Origin: a virus
DNA length: 64,000 bases
Strand: one strand, 5' to 3'
Virus record (IMG/VR): IMGVR_UViG_3300030116_004255
Coordinates: 17,956 to 81,955 of that record
How positions within the stretch are numbered: the first letter of the stretch is position 1; each line of letters opens with the position of its first letter. Both the position numbers and the translations under genes were made by a program. The notes under the pieces are model-generated. The model saw only the letters and a list, made by a program, of their open reading frames with translations. It was not told where the DNA came from and searched no databases. Of this stretch, positions 3,001-63,652 are shown in pieces.

Positions 3001-5786
3001 CCGTCTAAATGATATTTGTTTCCACTAACATTTGCTACTGTGACTGCAAATTCAATTATTGCAGTATTGCTTTCAAAATTAACTGTTTTATTGGTTAGTG
3101 TGTCTGTGCTTGTAGGTGTAAAATCTGCGCTCAGTGATCCTGAAGAATAGGTAAGTCCAGTTCCAATTTCGTTTTCGCCTATTAACTCAACCCAGTTTCC
3201 TGCGTGTGCGTAATATGCTCTACCTGTGCCGTGAACATGAGCAAACATACCATGATAAGTTGAGGCGCTAGGTAGATCACTCTCATTTGAATATATGTTT
3301 GCAAATAATACTTTTTGTCCATTCATATCAAGATCTGAACTATTATCAAAAGCTATTGTTCCAGAACTAAAACTTATATTTGTACCACCACTAAAACTAG
3401 AAAGAGTTGTAAAAGCAGAAGTAGAGTTGTCATAGTTTGACAAGTCATTATCTACAACAAAGTCATAATTATTATTTGCATCGTCATAAGTAATAGTAAT
3501 AAGTGTCTGTGTTCCCATAGTAAGAGCTGTTCCAAGTGCGTCTTGTGCTCTTTCATTTGTAAAGTATAGATTTGTAGAACCTTCAGATAAATTGTCAGTA
3601 TCAAACGCTGACATATTGACAGCAACAGTTGGGGTAGCTGTTTCACCACTGTTGTTAGAAAGTGTTATACCTGTTCCAGCAACAAGACTTGCTACATAAG
3701 CACCCTCAGTATCAGTTCCCAAGTTAAGAGGTTCATTTACAAAAGCAGAACCGTTATATCTAAGTATGTCACCTGTTGTAGTTGAAGTCAGTGTGACATC
3801 TGTTAGATCTCCAATACTAGCTGCTGCTATACGAGCATCTGCTCTAGCGTTTGTATAATAAAGATTTGTGCTACCTTCTGATAAGTCGTCAGTATCTTTT
3901 GTTGCGAGTCTAGTATCAAAAGCACTGTTGACTCTGGCATCTGTATAATAAAGGTTTGTACTTCCCTCACTTAAATCATCTGTGTCTTTAGCTGTAAATG
4001 CACTATCAAATCTTGCTTGTGTGTAGTAAAGGTTGCTTGATCCTTCAGAGAGATCGTCGGTAGTATTGTTAGAAAGATCATCCTCAGTTGCAGATATTGT
4101 TAATGTTCCAGCAGCGTCATCATAAGTAAGACTTACATTTGATCCTGCTGTTAATAATGTATTAACTTGATCATCTACTCGTTCAGCAGTGAAGTATAAA
4201 TTAGAAGATCCTTCACTCAAACTATCTGTATCGTGATTTGAAATACTAGAAACTGTACCAGTGACAGTACCTTCTAAGTTTGCGATTAATGTACCAACAG
4301 TGTGTCCAGTTGCAGTTATGTCAACAGTAGAGGTTGGCTCAGTCTGTAATCCGTGAAATAATCTAAATTTATCAGATTGGCTTGCGTCCCAAACTAAACC
4401 TGCATATTTTGTTGTTGATGATTGTACATATTCACCATAGAAACCAATATCAACTGAGTTTCCAGAGTTTTCGTCAGCATACTTAAATAATGGATCATTG
4501 ACAGTCACAGTAGTTGAGTCAACTGTTGTAGTAGTTCCCTGTACTGTTAAGTTTCCTGTAATTGTTGCATTACCAGCAACACTAATATTTGTAGATGTAA
4601 TGTCGTCAGAAGTTAATGTTCCGTCAACTTGTACATTGTTAAACTGTACATTATCAGTAGTTCCTACGGCCTGACCAATAGATATTTCGCCAGACGAAAT
4701 ACCAACACCTGTTCCTGCACTAAAATGCGCTCTGACCTCTGATGCTGATGGACCTGTGTAAGTAAACACTCCTGTCGTGTTGTCATAACTTAGCGATCCA
4801 TCTCCACCAGCATCAGAAACAGATAAACCTGTTAATGTAATAAATGCTGAATTTGTATTTGAATAGTTTGCTAGATCATTATCTACAACAAAATCAAATC
4901 TGTCATTTGTGTCGTCAAAAGATACTGTAATTAAAGTTTCTGTTCCGCCAGTGACCATTGCACCAACTTTATCTGTAAAACTTTCGTCTATTTCAGTTAG
5001 ATCTACAACAAAAGATAAAGTACCTGAGCTTTCAGTAATATCTACACCTGCACCACCAGTAAAGGTAATAGTATTACCTAAAGCAATATCAGTTGAATTG
5101 CTACCGTCAGTGACAGTTATAGAGCTATTAGTAAAAGCTGAGTTTGGTAAATTAGTAATTGTATTACTAGCACCACTTATTGTTTTGTTAGTTAATGTAT
5201 CAGTTGAGCTTTGTGTAATAAGTTCGTCATAAGATTGATTTTCGCCAGCAACCCAACGATTAGCTGAAACATCATAAAATATTCTTGCGTCGTCTGTGTC
5301 GCTTGTTTCGACAATAATACCGCTATCTACTTCGCCATTACCATTATTTAATTTTATAAACGCGTCATCAACATATACGACTTCAGCAGAAGTATTTAAA
5401 AATTCACCAGCAACACTTAAATTACCACCTATTGTCACAGATCCAGAAGTTGTTAATGTATTAAAAGTGACATCATCGCTTGTACCAAGACTTAAACTAT
5501 CTCGTGCTGTTGAACCACTTTCTACAACCCATTGTGTTCCGTCTGAAACTATAAAAGATCCGTCTGCGTGTACTAAGTTAGCTAGTGTAGTGAGATCGGC
5601 GTCATAGGCTTGTACATCAGATCCAATTTGTAGACCTATACCAATTCTTAATGCAGCTAGAGTAGCATAACTTGCACCAGTACCACCATCGTCTAAACCA
5701 ATGTAATCTGCCGATTGAAACTCCGCAAAACCGTCAGGATTTCCTTCGCTATCAATATTCAGCCTTATGGGGTTTTTTTCTGCCAT
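3..5786 (-). CDS. Giant tail fibre/structural protein (>1900 aa, runs off left edge; absent from ORF track)
   Basis: ATG at 5786 overlaps the TAA of the upstream gene (TAATG); reads MAEKNPIRLNIDSEGNPDGFAEF...; T/S/G-rich with about 11 TDxLxEGxxNLY(Y/F)T repeats. Frame checked by spot translation, not codon by codon. Confidence 0.85.
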   Translation of the reverse strand, partial: MAEKNPIRLNIDSEGNPDGFAEFQSADYIGLDDGGTGASYATLAALRIGIGLQIGSDVQAYDADLTTLANLVHADGSFIVSDGTQWVVESGSTARDSLSLGTSDDVTFNTLTTSGSVTIGGNLSVAGEFLNTSAEVVYVDDAFIKLNNGNGEVDSGIIVETSDTDDARIFYDVSANRWVAGENQSYDELITQSSTDTLTNKTISGASNTITNLPNSAFTNSSITVTDGSNSTDIALGNTITFTGGAGVDITESSGTLSFVVDLTEIDESFTDKVGAMVTGGTETLITVSFDDTNDRFDFVVDNDLANYSNTNSAFITLTGLSVSDAGGDGSLSYDNTTGVFTYTGPSASEVRAHFSAGTGVGISSGEISIGQAVGTTDNVQFNNVQVDGTLTSDDITSTNISVAGNATITGNLTVQGTTTTVDSTTVTVNDPLFKYADENSGNSVDIGFYGEYVQSSTTKYAGLVWDASQSDKFRLFHGLQTEPTSTVDITATGHTVGTLIANLEGTVTGTVSSISNHDTDSLSEGSSNLYFTAERVDDQVNTLLTAGSNVSLTYDDAAGTLTISATEDDLSNNTTDDLSEGSSNLYYTQARFDSAFTAKDTDDLSEGSTNLYYTDARVNSAFDTRLATKDTDDLSEGSTNLYYTNARADARIAAASIGDLTDVTLTSTTTGDILRYNGSAFVNEPLNLGTDTEGAYVASLVAGTGITLSNNSGETATPTVAVNMSAFDTDNLSEGSTNLYFTNERAQDALGTALTMGTQTLITITYDDANNNYDFVVDNDLSNYDNSTSAFTTLSSFSGGTNISFSSGTIAFDNSSDLDMNGQKVLFANIYSNESDLPSASTYHGMFAHVHGTGRAYYAHAGNWVELIGENEIGTGLTYSSGSLSADFTPTSTDTLTNKTVNFESNTAIIEFAVTVANVSGNKYHLDGETAASIQLIPGVTYRFDQSDSSNNGHPLVLSTTKDGTHNSGSAYTTSVTTNGSPGSSGAYTQIVVNAATPDTLYYYCSAHSGMGGDSVVSVAGSSLSASTTDNLTEGSSNLYYTDARSRSAISVTDSGGDGSLAYNSSTGVITYTGPSASEVRSHFSAGTGVTLSSGQISIGQAVGTTSDVTFNDLTVSGDLTVSGTTTTINTETLTVDDNIIVLNNNVTGTPSENAGIEIERGTSTNKTLIWDESDDKWTVGSERFDAGSIYSTFTGNLTGNVTGNVTGTVSSISNHDTDSLSEGSSNLYYTDTRVNSAFDTRLATKNTDNLSEGPNNLYYTDTRADARISAASVGDLSDVDITTSAPTSGQALVWNASNSEFEPGDVTSSLTGLSDTTISSLATNEILAYNGSAWVNTDTPIFGTGTRLYASGSNTFFGPALDFYTDSDSPAGGGTDIGGSGDTLGTINFYGNSSGSGDGGDFKYASIQGRIDTVGSKGALEIVTSSSKVAEFNDDGLHLHAGRTIKFEGSSLNGFETKLTVANPTADRTITFKNQSGTVAYTTDVPSFTDSLAEGGTNLYFTNARADARIAAADLNDLNDVLFSDPTSSDDAKVVSYSDTSGGFVLSSLGGLSGSGEVNTASNQNTAGIGVFKQKTGEDLEFRGINAGSAKITVTNDTTNDEIDIDFGTVSIADLSDVITTSVSDGQALVYSSSNSRFEPGDVTATLSGLTDTTITSPSNGQLIKYNGSAFVNFTADTDDIGEGSTNLYYTDARVNTAFDTRLATKDTDNLSEGSSNLYYTDARVQTKIDSYVTGGTGVTISSGEVAIGQAVATTSNVTFNDLVVSGNLTVSGTTTTVNTETINLADNVIVINSNATGSASENGGIEIERGDDTNKTLIWNESTDKWTVGSETFVAGTFEGNATGITTAAITALTEDSSPAETDLIVVYDGSANALKKVAKSNFAASATFSVNDEMPLTLADGSSDPIEFTNVGTSATDLDLTLAD

Positions 5787-6967
5787 TATTCGCTCATATC
5801 TATATTTTCTGTTTCCGTAGTCCCATCAGCTTTAGTTCTTGTGAAAACTAGTGATTTACCGTCTGAGGTTGGGGGCATAATAATTCTGGACAAAGTGCTA
5901 CCGTCTGCTTGTAGAACTTCTATTGCTCTTGTACTCATAGCCACCGTTGATCCACCACCATTTACCGATGCTGTCGTTGTGACAGGAATAAAATGATTTT
6001 TAAGCGGAACACCACTACTCGAACCAGTTTTCAACGCTAGTGGCATTTTACCACTATGACTTAGAGTTATTGGTATCTTGGCTGATAGGTTAACAATCCT
6101 TTGCGTTGCGTCAGTTGTTATATCAAGTTTTCCAGATCTTTCAACTCTATTTATTGAGGGTGTAAAAGTTTCCAAACTTAAAGTATCTGTGGTGCTACTT
6201 GCTGCAACAGTAGTTTCATTTGCTACTGCTATGTTTTGAAATATGTTTTGTGATCCTGATCCGCTAGCAGTGGAGGTTATAGTTATTTGATCATTGTTAG
6301 AATCAGAAGTTAATGTAATACCGCTACCTGCAATAAAAGTAAGTGTGTCTGAAGAGGAGTCTGCTACTACTGAAGATCCACTAGCACTTCCAGATCCAGC
6401 ACTTACGCCGAAATTTGTAAAAGCATTTGCTGCTGTGTTGGTGTTTGCAATAGTGACTTTTTTTGGTGTAGCACTTGTATCCGTGCTGATAGAAATACCA
6501 GAACCAGCCTCAAACTCTACATTTTCAGAAGTTGAACTAGCTGATATTGTGGTATTACCATTTACAACAATTCCTGCAAAAGCATATTGTGCTGTTGCTG
6601 GTGTTGACCAAGATATATTACCTAACCCATCTGTTGTTAATACTTGTCCAGAATCACCGTCAGAACCGTTAATTCTTAATTTAGCTGAAAGAATATCAAT
6701 TCTTTGTGAACTATCAATTTTTAAAGCCTCAGTGCTTGCAGTACCAAATTTTATATATGTATTTGACGCAGTAGTACCAATAGATAAATTACCGTCTGAT
6801 ACTACTGTTTGTCCGTCAAGATATAAGTTATCGTTTAAAGATACGATTTGCACAGTTGCATTTGATAGGGTATATCCTTCGCCAGAACTAGAGCTGTCGA
6901 AAAAATCGTCTTGTGTTGTTAAATTGTTTATTTCTAAAGTTGATCTGCTATGTGTTGTTAAAGACAT
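5786..6967 (-). CDS. Tail fibre-like structural protein
   Basis: S/T/G-rich; GQVLTTDGLGNISW and DTLTFIAGSGITL fibre-type motifs. Confidence 0.75.
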   Translation of the reverse strand: MSLTTHSRSTLEINNLTTQDDFFDSSSSGEGYTLSNATVQIVSLNDNLYLDGQTVVSDGNLSIGTTASNTYIKFGTASTEALKIDSSQRIDILSAKLRINGSDGDSGQVLTTDGLGNISWSTPATAQYAFAGIVVNGNTTISASSTSENVEFEAGSGISISTDTSATPKKVTIANTNTAANAFTNFGVSAGSGSASGSSVVADSSSDTLTFIAGSGITLTSDSNNDQITITSTASGSGSQNIFQNIAVANETTVAASSTTDTLSLETFTPSINRVERSGKLDITTDATQRIVNLSAKIPITLSHSGKMPLALKTGSSSGVPLKNHFIPVTTTASVNGGGSTVAMSTRAIEVLQADGSTLSRIIMPPTSDGKSLVFTRTKADGTTETENIDMSE

Positions 6968-26353: not shown

Positions 26354-28977
26354 TTTCTGAAGTCTTTAATTTTTCTTAATTTAGATATTGGTTGAGTGAC
26401 TGACCTGTCAGTTTTCTTATGTGATCCATCTTCCATAATAGCCCACACAACCATAGTGGCTTCGTTATCAGTGTTATTTACTGAACTAACTATTCCGTGA
26501 ACAGTTGATGGCGGATCAGGATCTTTATTTATTGACCAAGAAACAGCATCTCCCACTTTTACTGAATCTGCTTTTTCAGATCTAGCTGAGTTCATTTCTA
26601 CTTCTGATAAGGCCTCGGCCTCTTCAGTAGATACATTTATTTCCTCAATAACATCAAAAGCATTTTTCTTAGAACTTAGTGGATGACTGCTAGGTAGTAA
26701 ATCAGTATCGTATGGTTTTCTTTTAAACTTACCTGTTCTTAAAGCTCTTAATAGGCCATTCACTCTGGCCATTGCCCACTGGGCTGGACCTGCAACATTA
26801 CCTCTTACTGATCCAGGGTTATTTTGATACGCTGCTAAACCTCTGTTATAACAAGCAGTCAACATTCTTAAAGTTGCTCTATGTCTAGGATTTTTAGCGT
26901 TATGATCGTCTACTTTTTTCTGCAATGCTTTTCTTGTTGCTGCACTAAGAGCTTTAGCTTCTATTTCATCTAGTAAAGCCTCTTGTATCTTTCTTCTTTC
27001 ACGAATAACTTTTTTGTATTCGTTAACTGTTTTTTTCATAGCACTAACACCAGTTTTTGTAGTACCGCCCCATTTCATTACAGCAATGTATCCATTTAGT
27101 TTTGTATTACCAGAGTGTCTGGCCATAAAACTTTCACGCCTTTTAACCCAGTTCAATACTGATTCTGATCTATCGCCAGATCTGTATTTTGTCCACCTGT
27201 TGAAAGCATCATTACCAGTAAAAGAGGTTGGTGGATTACCACCTGTACCAGCTCTACGCCAGATTTCAGGCCAGTTCTCTTTAAGATCTTTTACATAGTT
27301 ATAATCTGGAAATTGTTTAAATTTGCTATTACTAATCGATATAGTTTGGTTATCTCCAGAACTTGGAAAGTTTGTTTTCTTTGGTGCTTTACCTTCTTTT
27401 TTCATACGACCTAAAGCGTTTCTTGCTTGATCTTCATTTTCATAACATTTAATTACTTCGTTAGTATCGTGATCTAATATACACCAAGCACCATTAGGCA
27501 TTTCAGCAACATACTTTTCCTCATTCAATTCAGTAGGTTTTGGTTTTAAAATTTGTGATCTAATTGACTCAACATCAACAGAAATAGTTGTCATAACTTT
27601 TTCTTTAAGTTCTTGCATATCATTTCTTAGTTTCGCTACTTCTTCCTCTGTTGTGATTTCTGGTTGTTCTGTTTCCTCAACAGGTTTAGCGTCTATTGAT
27701 CTTTCAACCATATTCATAGGTCTTAAATATATATCGTGTGTTTCATCTGAATTAAGGCCTGCTTGTTTTCTGGCCTCTCCGATTGTGATCCAACCACCCT
27801 GAACAGCAGTATTCATTCTTTTATAAATATCATCTTTGTCTTGTGATAAAGCCCTTACATCTTCTAAATTGTAATTTACATACATACCCTCAGCGTCATA
27901 ATCTTTTCTAAGAAGTTGATGTGTTAACTCTGACGCAACTGATTTCCATAAAGGTACTAATTTTTGTTCTGTAAAAAATTCTCTAAGTTCTCTGGTGTTG
28001 TTATAAGTAGCTGCGTCCAAACCAGCACCTAAACCTGCAAGAATAGCTGGGACACCAAGAACTGCTGATACTCTTTCTTCTGGTAATTTTCTTAACTCTG
28101 TTAAATTCATTTGATCAGGTGAGAAAGATACGACTTCTACATTCATAGATCCAGATAAGACCATAGGTGCGCCACGATTTTTTCCGCCAAACTTTTGTTT
28201 GTACATAGCGGATATTGCTTCGGCCTCTTCTTTTGAGGGTCCGCCCATTGAGTCATCTTTTGGTGAGAGGATGACACCTGGTACAGCCATGTTATGTAAG
28301 AGTGCTGCTGCATACTGTCCTGCGGCCTCGTCACCTAAAATTTCTCTTAATACAGATTTTAGAGGAGCAAAGCCTCGCCTATGGTTATTTGGATCAATTC
28401 CGTTTCGGATATGCACTATATCATTGGTTGGAACGACTATACTATTACCCCCAAGTCCACCGTGAGGTGCATACTTGAAGTGAGTTATTAAAGTATCTTC
28501 ATTACCTTTTGGTTCAACTAAGTTAGGCATCAAAGGAACTAGCTGTACCACATTTCCATCTGAGTTTCGGTTTTTATATAAAAAAGCATCTCCATAAGCA
28601 GATAAAGCAACAACTATGTAATGTGCTAATAGGTTTCCAGAAGTAAAAGGATTTGGCCTATCAAGTAGTTTTGATAAAGGGTGTTGTTTGACTACTTCTT
28701 GATCTCCATCTTCTTGATCAGTTAAAACTCTTATTCTTGGTTCTGCAAAAGAAGTTGCTAAAACATTTAAACAAGCGACTACTGCTGAGTTATTAGATCC
28801 ATCACCAATATCATCTAATTGTGAAACAGGCCAATAACCTGAGTCTGTATTATATCCGTAAACCGCTCTGTCTAAACTTGTTTGTTGATTGTATCTACTG
28901 TATTTTTGTTCTTGTCTTTTCGTAGGTGCGTTTAAATAATCTACTACTCTTCTGTACCTCGATTTATTCTCAGCCAT
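26350..28977 (-). CDS. Portal protein (HK97 family) with about 430-aa C-terminal accessory domains
   Basis: SAVVAC, HPLSKLLDRPNP, PGVIL, VSAVLGVP, GWITIGEAR. Confidence 0.93.
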   Translation of the reverse strand: MAENKSRYRRVVDYLNAPTKRQEQKYSRYNQQTSLDRAVYGYNTDSGYWPVSQLDDIGDGSNNSAVVACLNVLATSFAEPRIRVLTDQEDGDQEVVKQHPLSKLLDRPNPFTSGNLLAHYIVVALSAYGDAFLYKNRNSDGNVVQLVPLMPNLVEPKGNEDTLITHFKYAPHGGLGGNSIVVPTNDIVHIRNGIDPNNHRRGFAPLKSVLREILGDEAAGQYAAALLHNMAVPGVILSPKDDSMGGPSKEEAEAISAMYKQKFGGKNRGAPMVLSGSMNVEVVSFSPDQMNLTELRKLPEERVSAVLGVPAILAGLGAGLDAATYNNTRELREFFTEQKLVPLWKSVASELTHQLLRKDYDAEGMYVNYNLEDVRALSQDKDDIYKRMNTAVQGGWITIGEARKQAGLNSDETHDIYLRPMNMVERSIDAKPVEETEQPEITTEEEVAKLRNDMQELKEKVMTTISVDVESIRSQILKPKPTELNEEKYVAEMPNGAWCILDHDTNEVIKCYENEDQARNALGRMKKEGKAPKKTNFPSSGDNQTISISNSKFKQFPDYNYVKDLKENWPEIWRRAGTGGNPPTSFTGNDAFNRWTKYRSGDRSESVLNWVKRRESFMARHSGNTKLNGYIAVMKWGGTTKTGVSAMKKTVNEYKKVIRERRKIQEALLDEIEAKALSAATRKALQKKVDDHNAKNPRHRATLRMLTACYNRGLAAYQNNPGSVRGNVAGPAQWAMARVNGLLRALRTGKFKRKPYDTDLLPSSHPLSSKKNAFDVIEEINVSTEEAEALSEVEMNSARSEKADSVKVGDAVSWSINKDPDPPSTVHGIVSSVNNTDNEATMVVWAIMEDGSHKKTDRSVTQPISKLRKIKDFRN

Positions 28978-32901: not shown

Positions 32902-33048
32902 ATGGATTATTTAATAGGATTTATATTTGGATATTTTGTTAAAGAAACTTTTGCATTTCTGAAAAGATTAAGCGAATGGGACTGGCAAAATCGTTTGGTT
33001 TATGACCAAGATATATTTATGCCTCTTACTGAGGATGATTTACCCTAA
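32902..33048 (+). CDS. Small membrane protein
   Basis: MDYLIGFIFGYFVKE hydrophobic N-terminus. Confidence 0.55.
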   Translation: MDYLIGFIFGYFVKETFAFLKRLSEWDWQNRLVYDQDIFMPLTEDDLP

Positions 33049-34491
33049 AACCTCTTGATCAAACACAAGTGTGTCTTGTATCAAAGATCTAATAACTAAT
33101 CGACCTGTTAATTCTGCAAAATGTGGTACAACTGCATTTCCGAGAGCTTTAAGTCTATCAATATCGTTTTCTTGTCTTTCTGCAACTCTTAGTATGTTAT
33201 TTTCCCATTGACTATCTACACCCCAAGAATTTGTCATTCCAAGTTCAGCCAACCATCTGGGTAGCCCATAAGTCTGTTCACCCAAGCTGGGTTCAGTCGC
33301 ATACCAATCAATTCTGGATTCCGTTCCCCAACATCCATCTCCAGCGTAGAGCCGTGTGATCCACTCGCCACTGAGGGAGCTTTCTTGTTTACTGGCTTGC
33401 TGGCCTGACTGGCTCTGGGTGTCGAAAATGTCTCCTTTTCCACCCACTCTATCACTTCTATTGTCGTCAGTTCTTTCTCGAACTTTATTTCGTTCAAGTG
33501 TGGTTTGATCTTGCTCCAGTCCTCCAGACTCGGATAACTGAATCCGCTCTGATCGTAGCGATACCAATGATCCACTGTCGTTTTCTTTATCTTGGTCAGC
33601 TTTGCTAACTTGGTCGCCCCTATCTGACTTCTTATGTAGTCCACCCAGTCCTTCTGTGGTGGTAGAAGTGGTCGATTGATCATCTCGTGATCCTGATAAT
33701 AAACCATTAGGCTCGGATCTTTCTCTATCATATCCATCCAAACTTGATCGCTCAATGTTCTCTGTATCCTGTGGCCTGACGATCTCCTGGTTTTCCCCTG
33801 CATTAGTTTCGTCGCGTGTTTCAAGCTGTCGTCTTTCTGATCCATTGTCGTTGGTGTTAACCAAATCTTTGGGTTCTCTCGTAAGTTCCCAGTACCTTTT
33901 CTTTTGCTCTTCCTCTCTGGATCTCCACGATACAACGCTCTCTCCAAAGCGTCCCCTGATCTCGGTTCTAAGTGATCCAAAGTGTTCGGTGTCTCCCACG
34001 ATTCCAACTCCCACCCATCTTTGTCTTTTGTGTCTTGCTCCAACGAATTTTGCTGATACAAGTTGCCATTCAAATCGATAGTACCGCATTTTGGCCACAC
34101 CTTTGAGGACACGGTTAATGGCTTCTCCGTCACTTGCTCTGAGGATGTTTGGTACATTTTCCAAGAGGAAGATTGGTGGTCGTAGCTCATCAATAAATCT
34201 TTCGACTTCATCCCATAACCATCTTTCATCTTTTACTCCTTTCTGGTTTCCTGCAACACTTACAGGCTGACATGGAAATCCAGCACTTAATATATCTATT
34301 TTAGGTAGATATTTTGTATTTATCTCTTCTACGCTTTTATTTAAAACTAAACTATTAGGAAAATTTTGTTGTAAAACCTTTGTACAAAATTCGTCATTGT
34401 CTATCTGCCAAGCTACATCTGAAACCAGGCCTGATCTAATAAGGCCTAACTCTATACCGCCGATACCAGCAAACATACTTCCTAACTTCAT
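33040..34491 (-). CDS. C5-cytosine DNA methyltransferase, alpha chain
   Basis: FAGIGG, GFPCQ, ENV, HKRQR, motif X LKALGNAVVP; central region low complexity. Confidence 0.93.
   Translation of the reverse strand: MKLGSMFAGIGGIELGLIRSGLVSDVAWQIDNDEFCTKVLQQNFPNSLVLNKSVEEINTKYLPKIDILSAGFPCQPVSVAGNQKGVKDERWLWDEVERFIDELRPPIFLLENVPNILRASDGEAINRVLKGVAKMRYYRFEWQLVSAKFVGARHKRQRWVGVGIVGDTEHFGSLRTEIRGRFGESVVSWRSREEEQKKRYWELTREPKDLVNTNDNGSERRQLETRDETNAGENQEIVRPQDTENIERSSLDGYDRERSEPNGLLSGSRDDQSTTSTTTEGLGGLHKKSDRGDQVSKADQDKENDSGSLVSLRSERIQLSESGGLEQDQTTLERNKVRERTDDNRSDRVGGKGDIFDTQSQSGQQASKQESSLSGEWITRLYAGDGCWGTESRIDWYATEPSLGEQTYGLPRWLAELGMTNSWGVDSQWENNILRVAERQENDIDRLKALGNAVVPHFAELTGRLVIRSLIQDTLVFDQEVLG
33234..34229 (-). 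CDS. Nested alternate-frame C5-MTase beta chain
   Basis: WETP/WLTP/FSTP modules and terminal LNPAWVNRLMGYPDGW (motif IX-like). Confidence 0.8.
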   Translation of the reverse strand: MKDGYGMKSKDLLMSYDHQSSSWKMYQTSSEQVTEKPLTVSSKVWPKCGTIDLNGNLYQQNSLEQDTKDKDGWELESWETPNTLDHLEPRSGDALERALYRGDPERKSKRKGTGNLRENPKIWLTPTTMDQKDDSLKHATKLMQGKTRRSSGHRIQRTLSDQVWMDMIEKDPSLMVYYQDHEMINRPLLPPQKDWVDYIRSQIGATKLAKLTKIKKTTVDHWYRYDQSGFSYPSLEDWSKIKPHLNEIKFEKELTTIEVIEWVEKETFSTPRASQASKPVNKKAPSVASGSHGSTLEMDVGERNPELIGMRLNPAWVNRLMGYPDGWLNLE

Positions 34492-35234: not shown

Positions 35235-35868
35235 TGTTGTAATAATCCTCTACCAGCTCTATTCCTATAAATGCTCTATTTAGTTTTTTACAAACAACTC
35301 CAGTAGTCCCTACACCTAAGAAAGGATCAAGTATTAACTGATTTTCACTTGTAAAGTTTTCTATAAAGTAATGTGCAAGTTGTTCAGGCATAACAGCATT
35401 AAAGTCGCCATAGCTTTTTGTTCCTTTTGGTATATCAACAAAGTTTGTTATGAAATGTGTGTTTGCTTTTACTTTTTTCTTAGAGAAACATAAAATATAT
35501 TCGACTGAGTTAGTCACATAGTATTGTGCTGAACTAGGTGTAGCATTTTTCTTATACCAAATAAAATTTTGTTCTAATAGATCTGCATAATGGCCTATTA
35601 ATTTAAATACTTGTTTTTTGTTTCTAGCATTTGCTTGTATGTTCCAGAAAACATAGTGGTCTGTAATTCTTAATAGCTCGTCTATGATTTGTGTACACCA
35701 ATCAAAATAGTCAGGCCTTTTGTCTTTAAATTGATCGTATTTAGATTTTGCTTTAGAGTCTAATTCTTTGTTAAGGCCTATATTGTAAGGTGGACTTGTA
35801 AATGTATGATCTACTGTGTTTTCACCGAGTTCTTTTATAATTTCTAAACAGTCACCGTTATATATCAT
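35206..35868 (-). CDS. N4/N6 DNA methyltransferase
   Basis: TSPPY ... DPFLGVGTTG. Confidence 0.93.
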   Translation of the reverse strand: MIYNGDCLEIIKELGENTVDHTFTSPPYNIGLNKELDSKAKSKYDQFKDKRPDYFDWCTQIIDELLRITDHYVFWNIQANARNKKQVFKLIGHYADLLEQNFIWYKKNATPSSAQYYVTNSVEYILCFSKKKVKANTHFITNFVDIPKGTKSYGDFNAVMPEQLAHYFIENFTSENQLILDPFLGVGTTGVVCKKLNRAFIGIELVEDYYNIAKERIEAV

Positions 35869-36925
35869 CAACCTGTTCCCAAGTTCTGGTGCGATCACCA
35901 AAATGAGAAAATTGACTATCTTTGTAATATTGCACCTGTTTTAAATTCAATCTTTCTATTATTGCTTCAGGCCTAAAGTCAAAGCATTGAATAAATTTCT
36001 CTATACTTGCACGCCTCTTTTTTTCTGTTCCATTAAAAGCTACACTTAGTTCTATTGGGTGTTCCATACCTATTCCATAGGACAACCTAACTAAGGCATC
36101 TTCGCACATACCATGTTCTACTAAATTGACAGCTAAGTGTCTAGCAGCATAAGCGCCAGATCTGTCAACTTTACTTGGATCTTTACCAGAGAAAGCACCA
36201 CCGCCAACAGGTATTGTAGGTCCGTAGCTATCTACTACTATTTTCCTACCAGTCACTCCTGTGTCTGCTGCTGGTCCACCTTTTGTAAAAGATCCAGATG
36301 GATTTACATGAAGTGTAAAATCTGGACCTATTATATTTTCAACTAAGCTAACTAACTTACCTTCGTATTCATTTTTTTCTAATTCTGTTTGTACTGAGAT
36401 AACTACTGTATATCCGCCATTTTCAGTCACTTGTACTTTTGAGTCCAAGCCATAAAAATAATCATACTTTTGTAGCTCCCATAGATCCATTTGTATTTCT
36501 CTAGCTAAATCAAATTCGTGAGGTAAAAGCGTTGATGTTTTATTTGTTGCAAATCCAATCATAATACCCTGATCTCCTGCACCCTTTTTAGCTACAACTG
36601 CATCTCTAATTTCTATACTTTGTGGTGATATATTTTCACTAAGAGTATATTTATTTAGATCAAATTCTTTATGACTGTTTCTTATGTTTTTTTCTAAAAC
36701 ATCTTTGACTAGATAAGGTATTGTTTGTTTTATTTCGTGATAGGTAGTTTCTGTCATTTCGCCACCCAACACAACTAATCCTCCACTTTCATTACCAGTA
36801 ATTAATGTTTCTATTGCTACTTTACAATCTGGATTTTCTACTAAAGCTCTGTCTAATATTCTGTCAGAAATTTGATCTGCTATTTTATCTGGGTGTCCAG
36901 GGGACACAAATTCTGCTGTTTTCAT
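35858..36925 (-). CDS. metK: S-adenosylmethionine synthetase
   Basis: EFVSPGHPDKIADQISD, GAGDQG, GRKIVVDSYG, GGGAFSGKDPSKVDRS. Confidence 0.95.
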   Translation of the reverse strand: MKTAEFVSPGHPDKIADQISDRILDRALVENPDCKVAIETLITGNESGGLVVLGGEMTETTYHEIKQTIPYLVKDVLEKNIRNSHKEFDLNKYTLSENISPQSIEIRDAVVAKKGAGDQGIMIGFATNKTSTLLPHEFDLAREIQMDLWELQKYDYFYGLDSKVQVTENGGYTVVISVQTELEKNEYEGKLVSLVENIIGPDFTLHVNPSGSFTKGGPAADTGVTGRKIVVDSYGPTIPVGGGAFSGKDPSKVDRSGAYAARHLAVNLVEHGMCEDALVRLSYGIGMEHPIELSVAFNGTEKKRRASIEKFIQCFDFRPEAIIERLNLKQVQYYKDSQFSHFGDRTRTWEQVDDI

Positions 36926-59895: not shown

Positions 59896-60320
59896 TGGCG
59901 TTTCCAAACGAAATTACCTTTTCAGGAACTCTATGCAACATAGAGTATAAACAATCTAACAACGGCAACTTTTTTACAAAAGGTGCTTTAAAGATCTATC
60001 AAGGTCAAGAAAAAGATGACGCTTGGTATGATGTGGTCGTATTTAACAATGAAAGACAGAATCTAGCTGACAATGTTGCAGATTGTTTTTCCCCACAGGT
60101 TAAGAGCTTACCAGTAATCATAAAAGGTAAGTTAGATCAAAGTGAGTGGACAAAGCAAGATGGATCTAAAGGTAGAAATTATACGATCATAGCAAGTGAA
60201 GTTGCTGTATCTACTGTATTTGGTGCAGTAGGGATCATAAAGTCTGGCGAACCACAGGCAGTTCCAGAGCCACAAGCCAGACCAGTAGAGGAGATCGCAG
60301 AGGGAGAAGCTCCTTTTTAA
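59895..60320 (+). CDS. ssb: Single-stranded DNA-binding protein
   Basis: OB-fold pattern, LADNV, G.L....W...DG, C-terminal EAPF. Confidence 0.85.
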   Translation: MAFPNEITFSGTLCNIEYKQSNNGNFFTKGALKIYQGQEKDDAWYDVVVFNNERQNLADNVADCFSPQVKSLPVIIKGKLDQSEWTKQDGSKGRNYTIIASEVAVSTVFGAVGIIKSGEPQAVPEPQARPVEEIAEGEAPF

Positions 60321-60962
60321 ATGAAAATAGAGTATTTAAAACTACACGAAATATTACCTGCTGACATAAACCCAAAGGATCACGACATTGGCGATATTTA
60401 TATGTCAATGAAAAGATTTGGGTTTACTGAACCACCAGTAAAAAACGAAAAGACTGGAAAATTAGTTGCTGGTCACGGTAGGTTGGAAACATTAAAAATA
60501 TTAGAGGCAGAGGACATAACTACGCCACCACATAACATTAAGTTAGACAGTGACGGTAATTGGTTAGTTCCTGTCATTGCAGGAATAGAATTTGAAACTG
60601 ACGCTGAAGCAGAGGCTTACTTAGTAGCCTCGAATCAACTAACTATCAAAGGTGGTTGGAAAACTAGCGAATTAACAGATCTATTAGAAAGAGTTGTAGT
60701 TGATACAGAGGATCTATCTGGAACTGGCTTTGATCTTGACGATATTGACAATTTGATAAACACAATGGAATCAAAAGTCTTTGAGGACGAGGACATTGCA
60801 GAAGTAGAGGACGAAACAACAGTTAGATTTAAATTAGGTCGTTATAAGTTCGGTATTGATGCTGATCACTTCTACGACTGGGAAGAAAAAAGAAATAAAG
60901 ATCTAGGATCAAACAGTCCACAGGACTTGATCGCTTGGATAAAAGAAAGACTAGAACTTTAA
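60321..60962 (+). CDS. ParB/Srx N-terminal domain protein
   Basis: NPKDHD, FGF..P, VAGHGRL, YLVASN. Confidence 0.8.
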   Translation: MKIEYLKLHEILPADINPKDHDIGDIYMSMKRFGFTEPPVKNEKTGKLVAGHGRLETLKILEAEDITTPPHNIKLDSDGNWLVPVIAGIEFETDAEAEAYLVASNQLTIKGGWKTSELTDLLERVVVDTEDLSGTGFDLDDIDNLINTMESKVFEDEDIAEVEDETTVRFKLGRYKFGIDADHFYDWEEKRNKDLGSNSPQDLIAWIKERLEL

Positions 60963-61042
60963 GGGGCAGTGTTGGTAAAGTCGTGTTTAGGTATCCAGTT
61001 CCTAGACACGAAACAGGGGTTCGAATCCCCTCTGCTCCACTA
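60963..61042 (+). ncRNA. tRNA-like RNA resembling an isolated tmRNA tRNA-like domain (Ala identity)
   Basis: GGGGCAG/CTGCTCC-A acceptor with G3-U70; AGGGG-TTCGAAT-CCCCT T-arm; no D-stem; 11-bp helix. Confidence 0.8.
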
Positions 61043-61278
61043 GGGTAAGACAATTATTATTTAAATAATGATGTTGTATGGGGATACAATTTAAGTATAA
61101 GCAATCTTACCCTAAGTTTTTACAGAGTAAATAGATCAAGTAAAGGGCTTGATCGTAAGCAAGCTAGCTTATATAAATATCTACCTCTGTAAAAGGTTGG
61201 GAGATGTCCACAATTATGACACAACTAGTTGTAAATTTAAGAGGATACTGGGGAATAAGATATTCCCCACCAACCAAT
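61041..61278 (+). ncRNA. Candidate structured RNA
   Basis: Several long stems: TAGGGTAAGA/TCTTACCCTA, TTTTACAGAG/CTCTGTAAAA, GGGGAATA/TATTCCCC. Confidence 0.4.
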
Positions 61279-61286
61279 TTTTTATT

Positions 61287-62024
61287 ATGATCTTTAACAA
61301 AAATTGTTTTGATGTTTTAGGAAAGATTCCAGACGAAAGTATCCAACTGATCTATTCAGATCTACCTTACAATGAAACTGGTAATAAGTGGGACAAGAGT
61401 GTTATTGATCTTGATCAACTCTTTGATCAATACCTTAGAATCTTAAAACCAGACGGAACTATCGCTTTGAACTCAACAATGAGGTTCGCAAACAAATTGA
61501 TCAATACTGCACCAGACTTTTATAAATACGAGTGGGTTTGGGAAAAAGACAATGGAACAAATTTTATTAGCAGTAAGTATCAACCTTTAAGAGTTCACGA
61601 GTTCGTGTTGATCTTTACAAAAGCAAGAGTGACTTATGGTAAGACTTTAGGCGTTAAATACAATCCACAAATGACAGTTGGTAAACCCTACAAACAGATC
61701 TCTGGTAAAAGTAGTGAGAACTGGAAAGGAAAGCCACTAAAAAATGTTGAAACAGATAATAAAGGAACTAGACACCCAAGAACAGTAAAGTTTTTCAAGA
61801 GAGATACGCCAAAGATCCACCCAACACAAAAACCTTTGAAACTTGCAGAGCTGATAGTCAACAGCTACACTGATAAAGGCGACATAGTGTTGGACAGTTT
61901 TATGGGATCTGGAACAACAGGTGTTGCTTGCAAACTTAATAAAAGAAAGTTTGTCGGTATTGAACTAAATGTGGATTATTTTAAAAAGGCGAAAGAGAGG
62001 CTAAATGATATACCTAAGAAATGA
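61287..62024 (+). CDS. N6/N4 DNA methyltransferase
   Basis: DLPY, HPTQKP, DSFMGSGTTG; likely start MIFNKNC. Confidence 0.93.
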   Translation: MIFNKNCFDVLGKIPDESIQLIYSDLPYNETGNKWDKSVIDLDQLFDQYLRILKPDGTIALNSTMRFANKLINTAPDFYKYEWVWEKDNGTNFISSKYQPLRVHEFVLIFTKARVTYGKTLGVKYNPQMTVGKPYKQISGKSSENWKGKPLKNVETDNKGTRHPRTVKFFKRDTPKIHPTQKPLKLAELIVNSYTDKGDIVLDSFMGSGTTGVACKLNKRKFVGIELNVDYFKKAKERLNDIPKK

Positions 62025-62772
62025 CGATTGCTTTACAGCTTTAAAAGAATTAAATGACGATCTTGTTGATATGGTTTTTGTAGATCTACCTTATGGGACA
62101 ACAGCTTGTAAGTGGGACACAGTAATTGATCTTGAAAAAATGTGGAGTGAGTTAGACAGAATCACGAAAGACAACGCACCTATGTTGTTTACTGCTAGCC
62201 AACCATTTACAAGTCGCTTAGTAAGTTCAAACTTTGACTGGTTTAGGTATGAGTGGATCTATCAAAAGATAGCTGGTAGCAACTTCGCACAGGCTAAGTA
62301 TCAACCAATGAAAGAACACGAAAGTGTTTTGATCTTTAGTAAAAAACCAAGACCAATATACTTTCCGATCAAAGAGGAAAGACGAGGAACTGGTAGTGAC
62401 AGAGCGAAATATAAATATACTGACAAATCCAGAAAACAAGTCGGACAATTTATGGGACAGAGTATTAACGAAAGTGAATTTGATTACAGCAACGACAGTG
62501 GTAATGACAAACTAAGATACCCAAGTTCTGTTCAGATCTTTAACAACAGAGCCAAAGGGGATAGAGGATTGCACCCTACTCAAAAGCCAGTTGCTATGGT
62601 TGAGTATTTTATTAAGACTTACACTCGTGAAAATGAAACAGTATTAGACTTTACAATGGGTAGTGGGACAACAGGTGTAGCTTGTAAAAACTTGAACAGA
62701 GGTTTTATAGGAATAGAACAGGACAGGGATATATTTGAAATCGCTTACAACAGAATTTCAACTGATCAATGA
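62005..62772 (+). CDS. N6/N4 DNA methyltransferase
   Basis: DLPY, HPTQKP, DFTMGSGTTG. Confidence 0.93.
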   Translation: MIYLRNDDCFTALKELNDDLVDMVFVDLPYGTTACKWDTVIDLEKMWSELDRITKDNAPMLFTASQPFTSRLVSSNFDWFRYEWIYQKIAGSNFAQAKYQPMKEHESVLIFSKKPRPIYFPIKEERRGTGSDRAKYKYTDKSRKQVGQFMGQSINESEFDYSNDSGNDKLRYPSSVQIFNNRAKGDRGLHPTQKPVAMVEYFIKTYTRENETVLDFTMGSGTTGVACKNLNRGFIGIEQDRDIFEIAYNRISTDQ

Positions 62773-63652
62773 GGACATAAACTCTGGTTTAAGTCTTTTA
62801 TCTGACAAATCAGTTTCAATGACGATACTTGATCCACCCTATTATCGTAAAGTTGATCAAGACTGGGACAAGCAGTGGTTTACTTTTGATCAATATTTAG
62901 AGTGGTGTGAAGTCTGGATCAAAGAAGTTAGTAGAGTTTCAATGGATTCTGGGACAGCTTGGTTGTTTGGTTATCCTTATGAATTGTCAAAACTTTTACC
63001 GTTGTTTGAAAAATACGGTTTTAAATTAAAGCAACAGATTGTCATAGACAAAGGTTTAAAAAGTATTGCTGGTAGATCTAGTGATCAACTTAAACAATTT
63101 CCTACTGCAACCGAGTATTTATACTTCTTTTACAAAGATTCAAGAGAAATGATCAGACAACTACTTCAAAGCGAAAGGAAAAGACTTGATCTAACTGGTA
63201 ATCAAGTTAACCAACACTTAGGTAAAGCTGTGACTGGTGGTGGAACATTTAGCACGATAGCGTCTTTGAAAAAACCTTTAGAGTATATTGTTTACCCAAC
63301 TGAAAAGGATTGGATCAAGCTCCAAGAAATCTTTGATCTACCAGAATACGACACAGTTGTGTTTCGTTTTAATAGTTCTTTTGGTATCACAGATGTTTGG
63401 AACGACATAGACTTTTATATAAACAAAAAGGATAAGATCCACCCAACACAAAAGCCAGTAGATCTAATTAATAGAATCATTGATACTGGAGTTCCTAACA
63501 AACATATACTTGATTGCTTTATGGGAAGTGGGACAACTGCAATTTGTAGCAACGGTAAGTCTGATCGCTTTACTGGTATAGAAATTGACCAAGATATGTT
63601 TGATCAAGCATTTGATAGAATCCACCTGCATATCCCCCATTTGCGATCTTAA
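62735..63652 (+). CDS. N6 DNA methyltransferase with HTH-like insert
   Basis: DPPY, HPTQKP, DCFMGSGTT. Confidence 0.92.
   Translation: MKSLTTEFQLINEDINSGLSLLSDKSVSMTILDPPYYRKVDQDWDKQWFTFDQYLEWCEVWIKEVSRVSMDSGTAWLFGYPYELSKLLPLFEKYGFKLKQQIVIDKGLKSIAGRSSDQLKQFPTATEYLYFFYKDSREMIRQLLQSERKRLDLTGNQVNQHLGKAVTGGGTFSTIASLKKPLEYIVYPTEKDWIKLQEIFDLPEYDTVVFRFNSSFGITDVWNDIDFYINKKDKIHPTQKPVDLINRIIDTGVPNKHILDCFMGSGTTAICSNGKSDRFTGIEIDQDMFDQAFDRIHLHIPHLRS

Follow-up and report, generated by a model that had tools for sequence, protein, structure and literature searches.

Tag-less forms of tmRNA have been described from several sources. Hudson, Lau and Williams (2014) list 'Mycobacterium phage DS6A (TLD only)' (PMC4131195), and the same source, citing Mao et al. 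(2009), states that a DS6A-like molecule, whether chargeable or not, strongly inhibits tmRNA, perhaps via titration of SmpB. A 2025 database paper restates this and reports CDS-less tmRNAs from mitochondria, from two plastids and from DS6A (PMC11915505), and a review describes interactions between the D-loop and the T-loop as required for SmpB binding (PMC3968760). In the literature searched, tag-less look-alikes come from one phage, DS6A, and a few organelles; the supplementary tables of PMC11915505 and PMC9004378 may list more. The DS6A element (28478-28560 of JN698994) is unannotated in its record and is not called by ARAGORN.

The window analysed here is a stretch of 64,000 nucleotides at the end of a virus record of 81,955 bp, which CheckV rates as 100% complete; the GC content of the window is 35.9%. 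Direct reading of the sequence places an RNA gene of 77-80 nt at 60963-61039, or to 61042 if a trailing CUA is counted. On balance, we read this element as a divergent phage tag-less (TLD-only) tmRNA, probably alanylated, that would interfere with trans-translation. The element and its flanks comprise the following features.

60321..60962, plus strand: ParB-like nuclease-domain gene, 213 aa (phrog_620, E 1.2e-28; full-length relatives with 69-77% identity in nine loci)
60963-60969, plus strand: acceptor 5' strand GGGGCAG, with G3 at 60965 (direct reading and RNAfold)
60970-60980, plus strand: stemless D-loop UGUUGGUAAAG, 11 nt, containing GG; unpaired in the MFE and centroid structures and aligned to the D-loop of the Rfam tmRNA model
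60981-60991 with 61001-61011, plus strand: 11-bp helix with one G-U, in the tmRNA H2/P2 position (RNAfold; compensatory changes in relatives)
60992-61000, plus strand: 9-nt apical loop UAUCCAGUU, closing the 11-bp helix
61012-61014, plus strand: AAC linker from the helix to the T-arm (direct reading and RNAfold; AAC also in the five relatives of type II, described below)
61015-61031, plus strand: T-arm AGGGG-UUCGAAU-CCCCU with a canonical T-loop (direct reading, Rfam alignment and RNAfold)
61032-61038, plus strand: acceptor 3' strand CUGCUCC, with U70 at 61034 pairing with G3
61039, plus strand: discriminator A73
61040-61042, plus strand: 3' trailer CUA, not CCA; C74 is encoded
61041..61121, plus strand: closing stem of about 10 bp that encloses 55 nt and precedes UUUUU; it starts 1-2 nt past A73 (folding)

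The layout given in the preliminary description (an acceptor with G3-U70 and A73, an 11-nt D-loop, an 11-bp helix with a 9-nt loop, AAC, a T-arm and CUA) is exact to the base, and the element does start right after the ParB stop, the TAA of ORF 60321-60962 directly preceding 60963. The 7-bp acceptor stem carries G3:U70 and, together with A73, has the identity recognized by AlaRS. In RNAfold, the MFE and centroid structures both equal the structure as read (-33.4 kcal/mol, z -4.55), and none of 200 shuffles is as stable. A motif made from the fixed features of the element has one match in the window and none in 100 shuffles. Neither a tag reading frame nor pseudoknots are present in the 80-nt element, which has a single helix between the D-loop and the T-arm. 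It is not a canonical cloverleaf: there is no D-stem and no 5-bp anticodon stem with a 7-nt loop.

The best RNA family is the Rfam tmRNA model RF00023, at 32.7 bits (E 1.3e-11) in a 401-nt search and 41.2 bits in a search of the phage's own genome. The alignment spans model positions 1-374 with 303 internal positions deleted, and because so much of the model is missing the element cannot itself add a tag or end translation. The score is below the curated gathering cut-off of 47 bits for RF00023, and no Rfam family matches at gathering. The tRNA model RF00005 gives 15.6 bits against a cut-off of 29. ARAGORN, which the preliminary description had proposed alongside Infernal, calls no gene in the window or in the whole 81,955-bp phage and so recovers the element as neither a tRNA nor a tmRNA; the Infernal comparison favours tmRNA over tRNA, but under the cut-off. 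The UUCGAC...GGAC conserved at the base of H2 in the Rfam tmRNA consensus is missing, and the element has AAAGUC...GAAAC.

There is a modest chance that the element is instead an RNA derived from tRNA-Ala that has no D-stem and acts independently of SmpB, as a decoy or sponge for AlaRS, EF-Tu, tRNA-modifying enzymes or tRNA-targeting toxins, its likeness to tmRNA being convergent. Of 43 bacterial genome hits to the 25 nt at the 3' end, which come from many phyla, 36 are ordinary tRNA-Ala genes identical over this stretch (at least one of the 43 is a true tmRNA, in a Bacilli MAG), and a scan of viral contigs shows that phage tRNA-Ala genes with the same acceptor stem exist. The D-loop GUUGGUA resembles that of a tRNA-Ala lacking the 5' strand of the D-stem, and the missing UUCGAC...GGAC signature also fits a decoy. 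With the same tool, however, the tRNA model reaches 15.6 bits and the tmRNA model 41.2 bits. The topology, a stemless D-loop and one helix 3 nt from the T-arm, is that of the tmRNA domain and of DS6A, and Pfam and PHROG annotation of the neighbouring genes identified no toxin or partner gene beside the element. Descent is a separate matter: the element may have come from tRNA-Ala rather than from tmRNA, which the identity of the 3' 25-mer and the tRNA-Ala-like D-loop would suit.

Relatives were found via the upstream ParB-like protein alone, so their sampling carries no RNA bias. The search returned one viral contig and ten metagenome loci, the window itself accounting for one of the ten. Each of the nine close relatives, at 69-77% protein identity, has a counterpart of 75-79 nt in the same place, beginning 0-1 nt past the stop codon or 1 nt inside it; the tenth locus, the distant L187 (32% identity), has no counterpart after its match. 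G1 is the last base of the TAG stop of the ParB-like gene in six of the eight distinct sequences and lies directly after TAA in the window. These eight sequences, which form the covariation set, are of three types. Type I is the window. Type II has the acceptor GGGGGUG, the D-loop CAUGGAGUAG, a helix of 7-9 bp with a U-rich loop of 12-20 nt, and the T-loop UUCGAUU. Type III (L121, L184 and L185, two distinct sequences) has a D-loop without GG, the T-loop UGCAAUU and an 8-bp helix with a 7-nt loop. An alanine acceptor and T-arm plus one helix are common to all types.

Two Watson-Crick types, differing on both sides, are found at each of acceptor pairs 5, 6 and 7 and at each of T-stem pairs 1, 2 and 4, and all 96 acceptor and T-stem cells of the eight sequences hold standard pairs. 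By comparison, G1-G4 and acceptor pairs 1-4 never change, and G3:U70 and A73 are present in all eight. The central helix is remodelled with compensation, from U-A to C-G between L182 and L186 and from G-C to A-U between L121 and L185. A second count was made on a model-fitted alignment, which is biased towards structure: here 94.4% of cells are paired against 73.4% in shuffles, and 11 of 18 pairs are doubly changed, neither value being reached in any of 500 shuffles. When the partners are slid by 1-3 columns, 53-65% of cells are paired and at most five pairs show double changes. The preliminary description had considered that homologues might show no covariation or might turn out to be canonical cloverleaves. 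Compensatory changes are instead found in all three helices, and no cloverleaf was found among the relatives. Because its site is fixed in nine close relatives, its three helices carry compensatory changes, and G3:U70 and A73 are invariant, the element is a selected phage RNA gene of tRNA size.

These data also bear on whether the element could be a chance fold, the decaying remnant of a tRNA or tmRNA, or a phage attachment site derived by copying such a gene of the host. The element is below threshold on every curated detector, as a remnant would be, and the closest IMG/VR relative, L121, folds weakly (z -1.45). The compensatory changes in three helices, with none of 500 shuffles as good, and the fixed position in all nine close relatives nevertheless make such an origin very improbable. 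An attachment site was rejected: the acceptor stem has both of its strands, and the phage genome, which is rated complete, contains neither an integrase nor a resolvase gene. The type III sequences fit a tRNA-Ala decoy, given that they have no canonical T-loop or D-loop GG and yet keep G3:U70, A73 and covarying helices.

The apical-loop motif YCC(U)ARUU is kept in all eight distinct sequences while the helix beneath it is completely remodelled; inspection by eye found no pairing partner for the loop that is kept across the relatives. The preliminary description had offered, as an alternative, a tRNA mimic with the anticodon CCA (Trp) on an alanine acceptor, acting as a nuclease decoy or missense tRNA. 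As a decoding RNA it would be a D-arm-less missense or suppressor tRNA charged with alanine. The sequence A-U-CCA-G-U in the loop of the element would supply U33 and a purine at 37, and CCA is in the loop of six of the eight sequences. However, loop length varies (7, 9, 12, 14 and 15-20 nt), the triplet is CCU-A in two of the eight, and two more have C before CCA, so that U33 is absent. ARAGORN in its standard and mitochondrial modes calls no plus-strand tRNA in any of the nine sequences, and when relaxed it assigns conflicting identities, Glu and Lys, to two that are near-identical. We therefore give this alternative almost no weight. The 3' end is CUA in seven of the eight sequences and CAA in one.

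Acceptor-based and type-specific scans of viral contigs matched nothing beyond contigs already found, ordinary tRNA-Ala genes and coding DNA. A search of viral contigs with a degenerate motif returned at least 119 stretches, with 91 unique sequences among the matches listed. Thirty-four of the 91 were set aside, 14 because ARAGORN calls them tRNA and the rest because they fall outside 75-82 nt. The other 57, again among the matches listed, are 75-82 nt long and ARAGORN-negative and align as one family, with the consensus UUCGAC...UAAA-hairpin...GGAC and compensatory changes in 12 of 18 pairs. The Rfam tmRNA gathering score is reached by 16 of 22 members tested (all five chosen by hand and 11 of 17 taken in list order). 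The putative tag-less kind is thus widespread in uncultivated phages, and we somewhat favour the view that the window element is a divergent, sub-threshold member of it, as is DS6A.

A model built from the 57 sequences, R1, gives the window element 54.1 bits and finds it and all of its relatives. Because ordinary phage tRNA-Ala genes reach 40-50 bits with this model, almost as high, R1 was not used as evidence of membership. That R1 fails to separate the element from tRNA-Ala adds to the case for a decoy, which is retained as a serious rival because of this overlap, the lost signature, the tRNA-Ala identity and the type III loss of the T-loop and GG. In genomic position the family is varied. 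Among the matches listed, 13 of the 57 begin -1 to 8 nt from the stop of a long upstream frame, 15 are within 500 nt of a gene called by ARAGORN (mostly tRNAs; three calls are 'tmRNA' and may be the element itself), and others are far from any frame.

The scans also turned up several related or neighbouring RNAs. L034 (4115-4185, minus strand) and at least about 15 more unique sequences (L016-L110) are 71-nt genes resembling tRNA-Ala(UGC) with a shortened D-region; this class looks like a tRNA-Ala(UGC) without a D-stem, and ARAGORN calls about half of those among the matches listed tRNA-Ala. An 89-90 nt relative with the acceptor GGGGCAG/CUGCUCC and a longer middle is found in L134 (6666-6754, minus strand) and likewise in L135, L148 and L150. 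It scores 45.5 bits with R1 and may be an intermediate-size tag-less form. In L073, a Pistol ribozyme (RF02679; 6093-6154, minus strand; 51.9 bits, above the cut-off) is 106 nt upstream of a mini-tmRNA on the same strand (5905-5987, 81.1 bits), and it may be that the ribozyme shapes the 5' side of that RNA. In L032, a ROOL RNA (3239-3835, minus strand, 285.9 bits) is 24 nt downstream of a mini-tmRNA (3860-3941), the pair being inside a tRNA cluster (12 by ARAGORN, 14 Rfam tRNA matches).

In the window, the element is part of a plus-strand block of SSB, the ParB-like gene and three N6/N4 DNA methyltransferases, and the minus strand carries the capsid, protease, portal and terminase genes. The ParB-like protein has no Pfam match at E<0.01. 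A SAM-synthetase-like gene (35858-36925, minus strand) with 38-40% protein identity to metK genes of phages is also present, as are at least four genes for DNA methyltransferases (33040-34491, minus strand, and 61149-63652, plus strand, the latter adjoining the ParB-like gene), in what looks like an extensive phage DNA-modification set. The capsid, SAM-synthetase-like and ParB-like proteins match isolated phages at only 30-42% identity, and these phages have unrelated hosts. A DNA search gives 70% identity over about 147 nt to a methyltransferase of Flavobacterium phages. DNA of the window is present in runs of 11 marine metagenome studies, possibly including the source sample.

The ParB-like gene and the RNA are presumably co-transcribed, because the TAA ends one base before G1. 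Metatranscriptome contigs from two runs of one sample cover only 60288-60511, at the start of the ParB-like gene. A 38-nt metatranscriptome piece over 61016-61053 was rejected as a transcript of the element, since it has three differences and an unlike flank and is attributed to the T-arm of another organism. Two DNA strains are identical across 60516-61318, which is a weak hint. Downstream, the closing-stem arrangement is found in all nine relatives folded, with stem sequences that differ and compensate. The predicted structure at 61041..61121 is possibly a terminator or a 3' processing structure; a simple promoter and terminator scan does not list it and gives no plus-strand site near the element.

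Two palindromes occur in this flank. One, the 14-nt ATTATTTAAATAAT (61056-61069), is inside the closing stem and recurs in most relatives. The other, CAACTAGTTG, is part of a region (61199-61290) that is near-identical in the window and L121, and it is followed by a hairpin (61250-61268) and a T-run. Small frames of 28 and 21 codons in this region end differently in the window and L121. The region may serve the methyltransferase operon as a leader or operator, or it may encode a small RNA.

The arrangement raises the possibility, in our view an unlikely one, that the element is cis-acting tRNA punctuation, in which an RNase P cut at G1 and the hairpin would fix where the ParB-like mRNA ends and set it apart from the methyltransferase operon, while the RNA so released would have no role of its own. 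In the window and its nine close relatives G1 abuts or overlaps the stop codon, in all nine relatives a conserved closing stem begins 1-2 nt past A73, and the 13 elements of the wider family that begin at an upstream stop would suit such a function. An RNase P signal, on the other hand, needs neither G3:U70 nor A73, and both are invariant while pairs 5-7 change. The 15 family members near ARAGORN-called genes, and those far from any frame, are similarly hard to accommodate.

We return, then, to a divergent tag-less tmRNA, the reading that the preliminary description had put forward. Its support lies in the Rfam tmRNA model as best family, the DS6A architecture and covariation around an invariant alanine identity; it is weakened by the missing UUCGAC...GGAC, the sub-threshold score, the tRNA-Ala identity of the 3' part and the type III relatives, whose T-loop and D-loop have lost canonical nucleotides although contacts between these loops are described as needed for SmpB binding (PMC3968760). 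In the corresponding model, the RNA would be transcribed together with the ParB-like gene and cleaved by RNase P at G1, the simplest route given that it abuts or overlaps the stop codon. Host enzymes would trim it after A73 or C74 and add CCA; we take this end to be host-made because only C74 of it is encoded and the phage lacks a CCA-adding enzyme. Host AlaRS would charge the RNA with alanine, and the charged RNA would compete with host tmRNA for SmpB, EF-Tu and stalled ribosomes. The phage genome contains no SmpB, Pth, RF-1/ArfB-type or CCA-adding enzyme gene, so maturation, charging and action on the ribosome would all depend on host factors.

In this way, phage proteins made from broken messages could go without an ssrA tag, through titration of SmpB or through transfer of the nascent chain to the tag-less Ala-RNA. 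The invariance of G3:U70 and A73 beside covarying pairs suggests that recognition by AlaRS is under selection, and argues that charging matters beyond SmpB binding. Pure SmpB titration needs no alanine identity, and we therefore favour a role in which the alanyl-RNA would enter stalled ribosomes with SmpB and EF-Tu and pre-empt tagging, with SmpB titration as a component. It is also conceivable, if doubtful, that production of the RNA and of a non-stop message are the same event. As G1 is the last TAG base in six of the eight sequences and directly follows TAA in the window, release by RNase P would leave the upstream mRNA with an incomplete or 3'-terminal stop codon, a substrate for trans-translation. 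A truncated message and a tag-less, alanine-charged rescuer would then be made one for one, and the nascent chain would not be marked for degradation. On this view the phage would have a complete 'punctuate and rescue' module, which is more than an SmpB sponge.

Standard detection misses the element, which is ARAGORN-negative and sub-threshold in Rfam. It extends the kind to abundant marine phages, and it shows that such an RNA evolves quickly yet keeps its alanine identity and can be placed immediately at a protein gene's stop codon. Three features are not described in the literature searched: G1 overlaps the stop codon of the upstream protein gene, a sister lineage has been rapidly remodelled and has lost its elbow nucleotides, and one loop motif is common to all eight sequences. 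If ssrA tagging is blocked or bypassed, the RNA would be a phage counter-measure against a universal bacterial quality control and a natural small RNA inhibitor of trans-translation.

With bacterial and phage tRNA-Ala, the element has in common the D-loop GUUGGUA and an acceptor stem and T-arm that are identical in many genomes; unlike tRNA-Ala, it lacks a D-stem, a 5-bp anticodon stem with its 7-nt loop, and an Ala anticodon. With bacterial tmRNA (SsrA, RF00023), it shares the alanine identity, the T-arm, the reduced, stemless D-loop and an H2 next to the T-arm, but not the mRNA-like domain, resume codon, stop codon or pseudoknots. The CDS-less tmRNAs of jakobid-type mitochondria and Mallomonadaceae plastids likewise consist of a tRNA-like domain of about 65-80 nt with no tag frame (PMC11915505). 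According to the same source, these co-occur with SmpB of the same cell, whereas the window element is a virus gene without its own SmpB.

The closest counterpart is that of DS6A. Both elements are phage-encoded, are about 80 nt long, and have G3:U70, A73, a stemless D-loop with GG, one helix and a T-arm; neither has a tag frame, both are sub-threshold on RF00023 (34.7 bits for DS6A and 32.7 for the window), and both end in ACUA. DS6A keeps the UCGAC...GCAC and apical GAAAACCGCACGCGG hairpin typical of the large viral family; in the window element, a plain 11-bp helix closed by a loop of 9 nt and the sequence AAAGUC...GAAAC take their place. The elements also differ in GC content (70% in DS6A, 52% in the window element), in gene neighbourhood and in host, which is actinobacterial for DS6A and marine for the window phage. 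The tag-less phage tmRNA is thus a kind already in print, of which the window element is a new and divergent member that introduces no new principle.
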